A DNA stretch of 64,000 nt, from the NCBI GenBank assembly GCA_963715865.1, contig OY970280.1, positions 1,856,001-1,920,000 of the forward strand. Direction: 5' to 3'. Position numbers and translations under genes: made by a program. This DNA comes from Candidatus Bathyarchaeota archaeon. GTDB lineage: Archaea > Thermoproteota > Bathyarchaeia > Bathyarchaeales > Bathycorpusculaceae. The notes beneath the pieces are model-generated. The model worked only from the letters and a program-made list of their open reading frames with translations. It searched no databases and was not told the DNA's origin. Shown one piece after another: positions 14,762 through 43,078 of this stretch (positions are counted from its first letter, which is position 1; each line of letters begins with the position of its first letter).

Positions 14762-16171
14762 TTATTTCTTGTTTGTTAGGTATTCGTGCATTGCTTTTGC
14801 TGCGCGTTTGCCTGCTCCCATTGCGCTGATGACTGTTGCTGCCCCTGTTGCGACGTCTCCGCCTGCGTAAACTCCGTCTAAGCTTGTTTTGCCAACTTCG
14901 TTGACGCATATTGTTCCGTGTCTTGGGTCGCTTTGCAAGCCGTCTGTTGTTCGCTGTATGATTGGGTTTGGTGTTTGACCGATGGCGACGATTACTGTGT
15001 CAACGTCCATTGTGAATTCTGAGCCTGGAATTTCTTTTACTCCACGTCTGCCTTTTGCATCTGGCTCGCAGAGTTCCATTGCGATGCATTTCATGCTTTT
15101 AACCCAGCCTTTCTCGTCGCCGTAAAACTCGAGTGGTGCAGCAAGGAACTTGCAGACTAAGCCTTCTTCTTCCGCGTTTTCGATTTCTTCGTGTCTTGCT
15201 GGCAACTCTGTACGTGAGCGTCTGTAGAGTAAGCATACGTCTGAGCCAAGCCGCATGCTGCTTCTTGCGCAGTCCATAGCAACGTTTCCGCCGCCGATGA
15301 CGACTACGTGTTTGCCTATGCGTATTGGAGTGTCGTATTCTGGGAATTGGAATGCTTTCATGAGGTTAACGCGTATTAGGAATTCGTTAGCTGAGTAGAT
15401 TCCGCCAAGGTTTTCTCCTGGGCAACCGGTGAACTGTGGCAAGCCTGCGCCGCTACCGATGAATACTGCTTCGTAACCGTCCTTCATCAATTCTGGAATA
15501 GTGTGAATCCTTCCAACTAGGTTGCCTAGTCGCAAGTCAACGCCAAGTTTCTGGATGTAAGCGACCTCATTTTGTACGATTGCTTTTGGTAAACGGAACT
15601 CTGGAATACCATACGACAGCACTCCTCCGCCAACGTGCAAAGCCTCAAACATTGTAACGTCATGACCAAGCTTAACCAAGTCAGCAGCAGCCGTTAATCC
15701 AGCTGGACCTGCACCGACAATTGCTATTTTTTTGCCTGTTGGTGGAGCTTTCTCTGGAATCTGAGAACCATTGTCACGTTCCCAGTCTGCAAGAAAACGT
15801 TCTAAGCGTCCGATGCTGATTGGGTCACCCATTTTTCCGACGACACATTTAGCTTGGCATTGCACTTCTTGAGGGCAAACTCTTCCGCAAACAGCGGGCA
15901 ACGCATTCTTCGCCTTTATGAGAGCAATGCCTTCAGCATACTTCTTTTCTTTAATCAGCTTAATGAACGCTGGAATAGGAACATCCACAGGACAACCAGT
16001 TATACATTGAGGCTTAGGACACTGCAAACAACGATTAGCTTCTTCAAGCGCTTCAGCTTCAGTGTAACCTAAAGCAACTTCATTGAAGTTTTTAGCCCTT
16101 ACTTTTGGATCTTGCTTAGCCATTTCAACGGCTTTCTTGTTTAATTTTGGTTTAGGCTTAACTTCCGCCAC
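14762..16171 (-). CDS. nfnB: NfnB/SudA-type (GltD-like) bifurcating transhydrogenase large subunit
   Basis: EANRCLQC...CITGCP, CGRVCPQE, GAGPAGL, GGGNVAMD; GTG start 8 nt after GGAGG; no gltB nearby. Confidence 0.88.
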   Translation of the reverse strand: MAEVKPKPKLNKKAVEMAKQDPKVRAKNFNEVALGYTEAEALEEANRCLQCPKPQCITGCPVDVPIPAFIKLIKEKKYAEGIALIKAKNALPAVCGRVCPQEVQCQAKCVVGKMGDPISIGRLERFLADWERDNGSQIPEKAPPTGKKIAIVGAGPAGLTAAADLVKLGHDVTMFEALHVGGGVLSYGIPEFRLPKAIVQNEVAYIQKLGVDLRLGNLVGRIHTIPELMKDGYEAVFIGSGAGLPQFTGCPGENLGGIYSANEFLIRVNLMKAFQFPEYDTPIRIGKHVVVIGGGNVAMDCARSSMRLGSDVCLLYRRSRTELPARHEEIENAEEEGLVCKFLAAPLEFYGDEKGWVKSMKCIAMELCEPDAKGRRGVKEIPGSEFTMDVDTVIVAIGQTPNPIIQRTTDGLQSDPRHGTICVNEVGKTSLDGVYAGGDVATGAATVISAMGAGKRAAKAMHEYLTNKK

Positions 16172-16997
16172 ACTTACAACCTCCACGCATTTCCCACAAT
16201 ACTGAACTTAACCTTTCTTCAGGAAGCATTGTGCGCTGACGCAAAATCAACTGGTCGAAATCGGTTTGGTGACCATCAAATTCTGGTCCATCAATGCAAC
16301 CGAACTTCATTTTGCCGCCAACTGAAACTCGGCATACTCCGCACATGCCCATGCCATCAATCATTATAGGCGTTAAAGTTACAACTGTTGGAATGCCATA
16401 AGGCTTTGTGATTTCGCTAACATCCTTCATCAGGATAACTGGACCCATAACGATGCAGCGGTCAAACTTTTCCTTCTTCAGCAGGTCCTTGAGGAAGTCT
16501 AATCCTTTGTAGCCTTTTGAACCGTCATCTGTTGCTATGTAAACTTTGTCGCTCATGGCTTTAGCTTCGTCTTCCATCATTATGAACTCCTTTGTCCTAG
16601 CGCCGAGAATTGTGGTTACTTTGTTGCCTGCTGCTTTCATGGCTTTGACCTGTAACAGCAACGGCGCAATCATCACGCTTCCGCCGACACAGAGGACTTT
16701 GCCGAAGTTTTTGACTTCAGACGGATTGCCAAGTGGACCTGTAACGTTATCGATGCATTCGCCTTCGTTTAGTAAGCCAAGCGCTTTTGTGGTTTTGCCG
16801 ACTTCATGGAAAGCAAACGATACTGTTCCTTTCGCTCTGTCGCATCCGCATATTGTCAGGGGTATTCGTTCGCCTGCTTTGCCGTTTATGACTATTACGA
16901 ATTGTCCAACTTGCGATTTAGCTGCAATGTCGGAAGCTTCAACTTCAAACAGCTTAATTTTTGGAACTAGTTCTTTTTTAGTTACTATTTTGTACGT
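16158..16997 (-). CDS. nfnA: NfnA/SudB-type small subunit (FAD, [2Fe-2S]); predicted ACG start
   Basis: Frame is open from 16997: (T/M)YKIVTKKELVPKIKLFEV...GQFVIV..GERIPLT...GPLGNP...DGMGMCGVCRV...CIDGPEF; 279 aa; the ORF track misses the first 107 codons. Confidence 0.85.
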   Translation of the reverse strand, partial: TYKIVTKKELVPKIKLFEVEASDIAAKSQVGQFVIVINGKAGERIPLTICGCDRAKGTVSFAFHEVGKTTKALGLLNEGECIDNVTGPLGNPSEVKNFGKVLCVGGSVMIAPLLLQVKAMKAAGNKVTTILGARTKEFIMMEDEAKAMSDKVYIATDDGSKGYKGLDFLKDLLKKEKFDRCIVMGPVILMKDVSEITKPYGIPTVVTLTPIMIDGMGMCGVCRVSVGGKMKFGCIDGPEFDGHQTDFDQLILRQRTMLPEERLSSVLWEMRGGCKCGGS

Positions 16998-18229
16998 TTT
17001 GCTTTCGCCTCCACAGCTATTTCACGTCTTGGTAACGCTGAAATTTTCTTATAGAAAGCATCCAGTTTCTGATTGAAGTCGCCAGCAACTCTGGGTGACT
17101 CCTCATAAAGTTCGAATCGGTCAAGCAGATTCTTCTTTTTCAACACATTCAATAACACGCCCAAGTTGCGTTCTGCAGTGTCTTTGCCTTCTTGAAGCTT
17201 GCAATCTTGTGCTGAGCAGACCACTGCCATTACACCGTCGAAACCGCAGTTTAACGCGTTGACGACGTGAACTGGATCTAAGGATTTGAAGCATGGAACT
17301 TCAAGGGCTAACACGTTTTTGCCTGCAAACGCGCTGTTAGGGTTGTCTAAGGCTGAGAATTCTGACCATTGGCAAACGAACGCAAGAACTGCTGGACCGT
17401 GGTTTTTAGCTTTCAGTTGTGCAATTGAATTCCCATAACGGTTTACTACGTTTTCAAACTCGAAGCCTTTCACTTGAATAGCGTGATGTGGACAAACCAG
17501 TTGGCATGCGCCACAGCCGACGCATTTCTCTTCGTTTACTTTTGGAGTGGCAAACGATTCAAACTCAAGTGCTTTATATGGGCAGATGAATATGCATTTG
17601 TCACAGCCCACGCATTCTTGAACATCATAAACCGCTTTGCGGGAGAACTTTACTATTCTAACTGCGTTTTCATCGAAACCTAATTGTTTGAGGACATTTC
17701 TGGCTAAAACGAGTCTTCGAGTGTTTATTTTTGTGCCTTCTTTATAGCGGCAGAATGGATCTTCACATTGAATAGAAACAATGTTTTTTACGCCTGAATT
17801 CAGCGTATCAAAAATAAAGTCGGTTGGCACTCTGCCTGAACATGGCAAACGCAACGCAATGTACTTGCCAACCTTTAACCCTTGCTCCTTAAGGATATCT
17901 TGGACTTCGCCTGTGGAGGGCGAGTTTCCTCGGCACATTAAAACAAGCGTGTCAGCGCCACTTTTGGCTTTTGCACGTGCCTGTTTAACGTAGTTTGATA
18001 GATTATCGTAAGTGTAATATTGCGTTTTAATGGCTGAAACTGGGCAAGCACTGTAGCATATACCGCAGACTTGGCAGTCTTGAGTGTTAACTTCCACTTT
18101 TCCGGTTGAGTCGCGTTTTATGGCTTCATAAGGGCAGATTGATTGGCAAACATAACATCGGCTACATAAATCTTGATCGATTTCCACTACAGCGAGACAT
18201 TTTTCACTCATTCTGAAACCTCTTTTCAT
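16985..18229 (-). CDS. Polyferredoxin with two MvhD/FlpD-like [2Fe-2S] domains (Fd-MvhD-Fd-MvhD)
   Basis: Four CxxCxxCxxxCP motifs; two MvhD-like Cys sets (LMCRG/LPCSGR/QCEDPFC and FVCQWS/VPCFK/VCSAQDC). Confidence 0.85.
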   Translation of the reverse strand: MKRGFRMSEKCLAVVEIDQDLCSRCYVCQSICPYEAIKRDSTGKVEVNTQDCQVCGICYSACPVSAIKTQYYTYDNLSNYVKQARAKAKSGADTLVLMCRGNSPSTGEVQDILKEQGLKVGKYIALRLPCSGRVPTDFIFDTLNSGVKNIVSIQCEDPFCRYKEGTKINTRRLVLARNVLKQLGFDENAVRIVKFSRKAVYDVQECVGCDKCIFICPYKALEFESFATPKVNEEKCVGCGACQLVCPHHAIQVKGFEFENVVNRYGNSIAQLKAKNHGPAVLAFVCQWSEFSALDNPNSAFAGKNVLALEVPCFKSLDPVHVVNALNCGFDGVMAVVCSAQDCKLQEGKDTAERNLGVLLNVLKKKNLLDRFELYEESPRVAGDFNQKLDAFYKKISALPRREIAVEAKAKRTK

Positions 18230-22826: not shown

Positions 22827-22927
22827 TGGTAGCGGGGACTAGATTTGAACTAGTGATCTCTGGGTGTCTCCGAGCGACGAGCGCTCTTATGAGCCCAGCG
22901 GGTTAATCCTGGCTACCCCACCCCGCT
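22827..22927 (-). tRNA. tRNA-iMet(CAT) with 22-nt intron (22866-22887) and encoded CCA
   Basis: A1-U72 acceptor AGCGGGG/CCCCGCT, three G-C pairs in the anticodon stem, CTCATA|intron|A, T-arm ACTAG-TTCAAAT-CTAGT, BHB-like junction. Confidence 0.93.
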
Positions 22928-42552: not shown

Positions 42553-43078
42553 TTGAGATGCGAAGTCTGCGGACACAAAATTCACACTGAACCAATAACG
42601 GCAGTAATTGAAGGAGCTAAACTAACGGTTTGCGTTGAATGCTCAAAACATGGCAAAATAATCCATGAAGAAGCAGCCCTTCCCCAACAAGCCCTCAAAA
42701 AACCGCAGGCGCCAATTACACTGGTTCAGAAAAAACCAATAGTGGCTAAAGTAGAAATTACTCAAGAGATCACAGAAGATTATGCAAATAAGATAAAGCT
42801 GGCACGGGAAAAACTAGCGCTTACACATGAGGAACTCGGCAAAAAAATAAATGAGAAAGCCTCGGTTTTAAGAAACCTTGAAGGTGGGAAAATGGCGCCA
42901 AATAACCAGCTTAGCCTCAAAGCTTGAGCACATGTTAAAAATCAAGTTGCTTGTTCCAATCTCTGAAGAAAAAATCACTCAAATTCCTCAGTCCGCCAGC
43001 CGAGAATTGACGTTGGGCGACCTCATGGAATTGAACAAGAAAGGCGGGGAGGAGCCTACAGAACGAAAGCCATCATAG
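42553..43078 (+). CDS. mbf1: Multiprotein bridging factor aMBF1, +1 frameshift at ~42910-42914
   Basis: RCEVCG...VC.EC zinc ribbon, HTH; the repaired frame reads NNQLASKLEHMLKIKL...LTLGD, 174 aa. Confidence 0.9.

Follow-up and report, generated by a model that had tools for sequence, protein, structure and literature searches.

Where does translation begin in a conserved archaeal gene whose reading frame offers no canonical start for its first 107 codons? The gene in question is nfnA, which lies in a 64,000-nucleotide stretch of the genome of Candidatus Bathyarchaeota archaeon (NCBI GenBank assembly GCA_963715865.1, contig OY970280.1, positions 1,856,001 to 1,920,000; hereafter the window, with coordinates counted from its first letter unless given as genome positions). 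Bathyarchaeia are a very abundant lineage of peat and sediment, and this genome, here called G000, comes from peat soil. An earlier note made from the letters of the window (the sequence-only reading) had suggested that nfnA starts at ACG, while also allowing for a T-to-C miscall, for a fusion with the upstream Fe-S protein if one A were missing from the adjoining run, and for mRNA editing. Here, we compare the locus with its orthologues and conclude that the ACG at 16997-16995 is very probably the functional start position of nfnA, and that its direct reading as a near-cognate start, anchored by Shine-Dalgarno (SD) pairing, is probably the specific route.

Results

The start region of nfnA

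The three genes concerned—a polyferredoxin-MvhD gene (Fd-MvhD), nfnA and nfnB, in that order—are all encoded on the minus strand. An in-frame TGA (17024-17022) closes the nfnA frame at the ninth codon 5′ of the candidate start codon ACG (16997-16995), and after that TGA the frame reads AAT AGC TGT GGA GGC GAA AGC AAA ACG TAC AAA ATA. The earliest canonical in-frame codon is a GTG at codon 108 (16676-16674), which we judged not to be the real start. Read from ACG, nfnA (16158..16997) has 279 codons, closes with TAA (16160-16158) and encodes an NfnS-type small subunit. The ACG is preceded by an SD core, GGAGG (17012-17008), complementary to the 3′ end of the 16S rRNA (...CACCUCCU), with a spacer of 10 nucleotides (nt) between them (17007-16998).

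The sequence-only reading had described most of this correctly: the TGA nine codons upstream, the lack of any ATG, GTG or TTG before codon 108 and the length of 279 amino acids were all confirmed, as was—by coordinates and by aligned orthologues—the position of ACG-TAC-AAA-ATA 10 nt past GGAGG, where homologues read MYKI. It erred in treating the 10-nt spacer as a departure from a norm of 7-8 nt, as the modal GGAGG-ATG spacing across the genome is 9-10 nt.

The start codon across relatives

Within the genus, the nfnA orthologue was found in a further 19 species-representative genomes, and among the resulting 20 congeneric genomes (G000 included) the aligned start codon was ACG in 13, ATG in six and GTG in one. 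A scan of 185,579 species genomes then supplied 80 further nfnA loci, which come from Candidatus Bathyarchaeota/Bathyarchaeia metagenome-assembled genomes (MAGs), save for a few records deposited under other names, and from at least six projects, including SPRUCE, Stordalen palsa/fen, Microflora Danica and Chersky. Here the codon was ACG in 67 loci and ATG in 12, while one locus combined ACG with a downstream homopolymer frameshift. After deduplication, the set held 84 distinct Bathyarchaeia orthologues, with ACG in 69 (about 80%), ATG in 14 and GTG in one. Such recurrence of the same ACG is far beyond chance, and ACA, ACC and ACT occurred at this column in none of the 84 orthologues. JGI metagenome contigs with identical flanks, of unstated library type, carried ACG in 14 of 14 cases.

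The sequence-only reading had envisaged that relatives from independent assemblies might all carry ATG; the outcome was the opposite, and its proposal that nfnA starts at ACG now has comparative support, with the ACG of 69 of the 84 orthologues standing in the column occupied by ATG or GTG in the other 15.

The frame around this codon is variable in ways that leave the codon itself in place. No canonical start lies between the upstream stop and ACG in 54 of the 69 ACG loci; the closing TGA stands only one codon 5′ of ACG in two relatives; and the first in-frame canonical codon 3′ of ACG falls anywhere from codon 5 to codon 109. As a separate observation, locus L200 (MFD01872.bin.2.69; L-numbers denote the individual loci compared) has a one-base A-run indel within the first 10 nfnA codons, which creates an in-frame TAG at codon 11 and is probably a homopolymer error of MAG assembly. 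Mis-binning probably explains why some orthologue records bear bacterial names (Acidoferrum, Limnocylindrales, Nanoarchaeia).

Selection on the gene and on its start codon

Across the 13 ACG-bearing congeneric genomes, the pairwise ratio of non-synonymous to synonymous substitution (dN/dS) for nfnA was 0.06, with dS at about 1.1, and codons 2-107, which lie 5′ of the first canonical start in G000, gave a dN/dS of 0.065. Internal stops were absent from 99 of 100 nfnA loci. This pattern of substitution indicates a living gene whose N-terminal region is translated.

The start codon itself is conserved to its third base. Among the same 13 genomes the start ACG is invariant, whereas the third base was kept in 0 of 13 conserved internal threonine codons and in 5 of 77 four-fold codons. 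The start column switches about seven times on the gene tree, only among ACG, ATG and GTG. The lineage represented by L277-L279 (ENA/Logan metagenome contigs, positions 301-306) is instructive: there nfnA reads ATG ACC TAC AAA, with a new ATG one codon 5′, 7 nt past GGAGG, and with ACC at the former ACG position. Since ACG gave way to ACC once an upstream ATG had been gained, it was held only while serving as the start. As judged from these alignments, the identity of the codon, beyond that of the amino acid, is under selection at the nfnA start, and the ACG is real, ancient and kept by selection, standing where orthologues have ATG and at a canonical distance from the SD.

Ribosome-binding site and decoding machinery

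The 3′ end of the G000 16S rRNA reads ...GGAUCACCUCCU. GGAGG precedes the ACG in all 69 ACG orthologues, at 10 nt in 65 and at 9 nt in four, and the ATG-bearing relatives show the same arrangement. The initiator tRNA-Met gene of G000 lies within the window (22827..22927, minus strand; ARAGORN) and is of ordinary type, with A1:U72, a GGG/CCC anticodon stem, a normal CAT anticodon and a 22-nt intron. No initiator-like tRNA with a CGU anticodon was present among the tRNAs of the genome, its tRNA-Thr(CGU) being an ordinary elongator with G1:C72.

Other non-canonical starts in the genome and genus

In G000 we scanned open frames of 150 codons or more, with no canonical start for at least 25 codons, for in-frame codons at their 5′ ends that are led by an SD. 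In this strict scan ACG came first among the 61 codons (observed 5, expected 0.59), although the numbers are small and one locus was counted twice (a tandem ACG ACG, 301017/301014). In a looser scan of all SD-led codons 5′ of the first canonical start, ACG was not enriched (11 observed, 10 expected). An apparent ACG start near genome position 1569157 was discarded, as it proved to lie out of frame.

The complete genome of a congener, G013, provided 1458 reciprocal-best orthologue pairs with G000. Where one partner has a canonical start and the other none, the commonest codons opposite the canonical start were CTG (nine) and ACG (seven), with others at three or fewer per list; ATA, ATT and ATC were likewise found opposite ATG. 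This comparison is noisy, as many of the pairs in which both partners appear startless reflect shadows of conserved genes in other frames or mis-registration caused by indels.

The window itself holds a second ACG start, in hflX (43063..43065, plus strand), where GGAGG-N10-ACG is found in both G000 and G013 and the next canonical start lies 110 codons downstream. Outside the window, argH (G000 genome 1770612, minus strand) has ACG where G013 has GTG, and the adjacent argG (G000 genome 1771872, minus strand) has ATA where G013 has ATG. At G000 genome position 1854920 (plus strand; L238:301), about 1.1 kb before the window, the gene for a 419-residue membrane protein has a candidate GCG start, GGGAGGGG-N5-GCG, which stands opposite the ATG of its G013 orthologue.

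The most informative family outside nfnA is a gene for a YdjM-like hydrolase (L249/L237; G000 genome 1310149-1309478, minus strand, outside the window; orthologues L250-L275), whose start column reads TCG in five species, TTG in 13, ATG in five and CTG in one. TCG arose at least twice, always after a perfect AGGAGG, the strongest SD sequence of the family, and a paralogue starts at ACG or ATG. The predicted energy of the SD duplex in this family strengthens from ATG (−1.5 kcal/mol over the five orthologues, or −2.45 if the paralogue is counted) through TTG (−6.4) and CTG (−9.3) to TCG (−10.1). SD duplexes were stronger at ACG starts than at the canonical starts of their orthologues, at −7.0 against −5.5 kcal/mol, a trend in a small sample (Mann–Whitney U test, p = 0.04, n = 7), while an exact 5-mer SD test for ACG and CTG starts was not significant (5/16 against 22.7%).

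ACG in hflX and argH, together with TCG and CTG elsewhere, points in the same direction as nfnA, which is one instance of a wider habit of this genus, whose start codons tolerate C where U would otherwise stand (ACG, CTG and, in one gene, TCG). We rejected the idea that such starts generally require translational coupling, as 7 of 22 non-canonical starts lie at gene junctions compared with 25.6% of canonical ones. Canonical starts of G000 and G013 also differ among themselves: TTG accounts for about 25% of conserved starts, and TTG-start genes have SD duplexes of −6.4 kcal/mol against −5.5 for ATG-start genes, with a 5-mer SD in 28% against 21%.

The protein product and its operon partners

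The 279-residue product matches NF004862 (NCBIfam; sulfide/dihydroorotate dehydrogenase-like FAD/NAD-binding protein) at 352 bits, against a cut-off of 220, over profile positions 2-272 of 281. Position 2 of the profile falls on residue 2 of the product, which therefore places the ACG at position 1 of the family. The product also matches the small subunit of Pyrococcus furiosus NfnI, for which a structure has been solved (5jca_S; E = 2e-78, residues 2-270), and Thermotoga maritima NfnA (4ylf_A; E = 3e-71), and it carries a C-terminal [2Fe-2S] domain of the DHOD-B type (Pfam PF10418, DHODB_Fe-S_bind; E = 1.2e-10, residues 211-245). By these homologies it is identified as the NfnA/NfnS small subunit, with a predicted NADH-dependent ferredoxin:NADP+ oxidoreductase activity.

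The gene for the GltD-like large subunit, nfnB (14762..16171, minus strand; Fer4_20 and Pyr_redox_2; TIGR01316, 586 bits), follows directly 3′ of nfnA and overlaps its stop. Its start is probably the GTG at 16171, 8 nt past a second GGAGG (16184-16180), and not the first GTG of the mechanical open reading frame (ORF) list, at 16186.

Upstream, the Fd-MvhD gene (16985..18229, minus strand) encodes a polyferredoxin with four 4Fe-4S motifs and two FlpD/MvhD domains. It stops at a TAG (16987-16985) that overlaps nfnA codons 4-5 in the −1 frame, 10 nt beyond the A of ACG; the same kind of overlap is found in 61 of the 69 ACG loci and in most ATG loci. A tandem protein of this design, (2x[4Fe-4S] + FlpD/MvhD) x2, is an unusual partner for NfnAB at the head of the operon, and its best NCBIfam match is to the C-terminal part of HdrA2.

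Annotation of nfnA in public databases

Standard gene callers mis-start nfnA. Among the 120 closest database proteins, 56 begin MYKI, 53 are shortened (for example MVTKK, VTKKEL or LFEVE) and about 10 carry extensions; one MYKI entry that we traced has a genomic ATG at the start position. Public N-termini of nfnA orthologues are of at least six kinds, namely MYKI, MVTKK, V/MTKKEL, LFEVE, VPKIK and extensions of 6-32 residues. As a consequence of such mis-started calls, metabolic reconstructions and protein families of Bathyarchaeia inherit wrong N-termini or apparently ‘missing’ genes.

Discussion

Probable direct reading of the ACG

Under the reading that we favour, the conserved GGAGG would pair with the 3′ tail of the 16S rRNA and so place the 30S pre-initiation complex with its P site over the ACG. 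There, ordinary Met-tRNAi (CAU) would be accepted despite a C:A mismatch at the middle position, giving a protein that presumably begins Met-Tyr-Lys-Ile like those of its relatives, at a rate probably below that of ATG. Local delivery may also be helped by ribosomes that have just completed the overlapping Fd-MvhD gene, which stops 10 nt downstream. Of the near-cognate codons, CUG and ACG are the better ones for initiation machinery of the eukaryotic kind, which archaea share. Direct reading is preferred to repair of the codon because SD strength appears to compensate for weak start codons, and ACG is known to initiate translation with an N-terminal methionine in Escherichia coli reporters (Hecht et al., bioRxiv 10.1101/063800).

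Several points count against this account. In E. coli, initiation from ACG is very weak, at about 0.1-1% of AUG (bioRxiv 10.1101/063800), and reviews of start-codon selection and archaeal translation initiation give only AUG, GUG and UUG; adequate expression of nfnA would therefore need machinery more permissive than has been documented. The case is built on comparison of DNA, and the genome-wide start statistics are noisy and small in number. The TCG of the YdjM-like gene has two mismatches to CAU, and ACG, TCG and CTG would each be turned into a canonical start by a single C-to-U step, an observation equally in line with editing. Finally, in most loci the G of ACG doubles as the middle base of an arginine codon in the overlapping upstream frame, a possible added constraint on the codon; ACG is, though, retained in loci that lack this overlapping upstream tail.

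Alternative explanations

It is unlikely that the genus converts or decodes ACG, UCG and CUG specifically, whether by editing of start codons in mRNA or through a lineage-specific alteration of the initiator tRNA or initiation factors so that they accept C at positions 1 and 2; specific conversion or decoding of this kind would expand the effective set of start codons. Editing taken by itself, in which C-to-U changes make AUG from ACG (and UUG from CUG or UCG) before translation, strikes us as improbable. It draws on the fact that the recurrent ACG, CTG and TCG all differ by one such change from ATG or TTG, on the repeated interchange of ACG and ATG across the tree, as if the two were nearly neutral, and on the difficulty of reading TCG, with its two mismatches to AUG, by a CAU anticodon. 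However, SD strength scales with the weakness of the codon, and non-canonical starts out-pair their canonical orthologues, which would be needless if the codon were repaired; nor does editing of this sort account for ATA, ATT and ATC opposite ATG. The genome holds two CMP/dCMP-deaminase (PF00383) ORFs, of 165 and 423 amino acids, neither of them near a THUMP domain (DYW and other deaminase families were not searched), and nothing resembling CDAT8 was seen among its PF00383 deaminase-domain ORFs. The translation-initiation reviews consulted, which were not searched for editing, make no mention of C-to-U changes in mRNA. To our knowledge, C-to-U editing of mRNA has not been described in archaea, and if it acted on start codons here this would be the first such case in that domain.

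A poorer candidate again, and one that we hold to be quite improbable, is that translation starts at a nearby non-canonical codon, such as the ATA at codon 4 that is picked by some gene callers, or by codon-independent reinitiation past the upstream stop, the ACG being merely tolerated. The ATA is kept in 68 of the 69 ACG loci, the database entry for the nfnA of this window begins MVTKK, and for reinitiation the upstream stop is conveniently placed just 10 nt beyond the ACG. Yet at 19 nt from GGAGG the ATA falls beyond the spacing used across the genome, and in ATG-bearing relatives this position varies among ATA, ATT and ATC, behaving as an ordinary isoleucine codon. Both versions leave unexplained why ACG never drifts to ACA, ACC or ACT, save where an upstream ATG is present, and non-canonical starts show no enrichment of junction coupling (7/22 against 25.6%).

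We consider it very improbable that NfnA is made as a C-terminal extension of Fd-MvhD, through a −1 slip on the A-AAA-C before ACG or because one A is lacking from the assembly. The upstream frame in G000, GCA AAA CGT, would let tRNA-Lys re-pair one base back, and AAA precedes ACG in 60 of the 69 ACG loci. This arrangement is not conserved, however: the A-run is absent from nine of the 69 (CGAA, TAAC, CATA and others), and in five loci (e.g. L006, L164, L217) the upstream gene stops before ACG or sits in the +1 frame, so that a −1 slip cannot fuse the genes there. No X XXY YYZ heptamer occurs in the overlap, relatives with ATG or GTG share the overlap and yet clearly have separate genes, and the only invariant element is GGAGG-N9/10-ACG. 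The version with a missing A, raised by the sequence-only reading alongside the fusion, is excluded by an identical A4 run beside ACG in many independent assemblies.

Lastly, a T read as C or a decaying pseudogene, in whose favour there is nothing beyond the view from a single genome, can be set aside as negligible, since a miscall is excluded by the presence of ACG in dozens of assemblies made independently (67 of 80 species-representative genomes, drawn from at least six projects, and 14 of 14 JGI contigs), while a dN/dS of 0.06 with dS at about 1.1 and 99 of 100 loci free of internal stops speak against decay.

Implications

If ACG is the sole start of nfnA, then SD-anchored direct reading would mean that the eukaryote-like machinery of archaea tolerates a mismatch at the middle position when a strong SD sequence anchors the mRNA. 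The gradient of SD strength, ATG < TTG < CTG < TCG, amounts to a concrete and testable rule. A weak start on the small Nfn subunit, within a three-gene operon whose reading frames overlap translationally, may also set the stoichiometry of the subunits.

Comparison with known systems

Near-cognate initiation at ACG occurs in eukaryotes and viruses, as in adeno-associated virus VP2 and Sendai virus C′. These cases, and ACG in E. coli reporters, resemble nfnA in having ACG at the start, where the ordinary initiator tRNA presumably reads it across a mismatch at the middle base and supplies an N-terminal methionine. They differ in that the nfnA codon is placed by SD pairing, whereas eukaryotic and viral ACG starts are selected by scanning and Kozak context, and in that the ACG of nfnA, kept across dozens of species, is the only start of a redox enzyme with a housekeeping role instead of the start of an alternative isoform. 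Archaea nonetheless possess aIF1/aIF1A/aIF2 machinery of eukaryotic type (PMC4705826, PMC7531240).

As regards genomic pattern, nfnA is also like the organellar genes whose starts are edited, with ACG at the orthologous ATG position and frequent interchange of ACG and ATG. In plant chloroplasts and mitochondria, ACG starts such as those of ndhD and psbL are restored to AUG by C-to-U editing. Unlike in organelles, no PPR-DYW editing machinery is known or was found in G000 (the DYW family itself was not searched), and in this genus weaker codons go with stronger SDs, a pattern that favours direct reading.

Rare bacterial starts that serve autoregulation or tuning, such as the AUU of infC and the CTG, ATT, ATC and ATA of NCBI table 11, likewise combine a weak codon with a good ribosome-binding site, and nfnA is, like them, an SD-led, operon-internal prokaryotic gene. 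ACG and TCG, in contrast, stand outside the starts of table 11, and in annotated bacterial genomes CTG, ATT, ATC and ATA appear among the listed starts while ACG does not (bioRxiv 10.1101/063800). No archaeal case of an ACG start, in Bathyarchaeia or elsewhere, came to light in our literature search. The closest parallel comes from the same genome, where hflX has an identical GGAGG-N10-ACG geometry and about 110 codons without a canonical start, in a different gene and at a different junction; nfnA is the more deeply sampled of the two, at 84 orthologues, and brings in addition the tests of selection, the change of ACG to ACC after the gain of an ATG, and a direct examination of the frameshift rival. 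Non-AUG, near-cognate initiation is already known; what nfnA would add is an SD-led ACG conserved in an archaeal lineage as the only start of a core enzyme.

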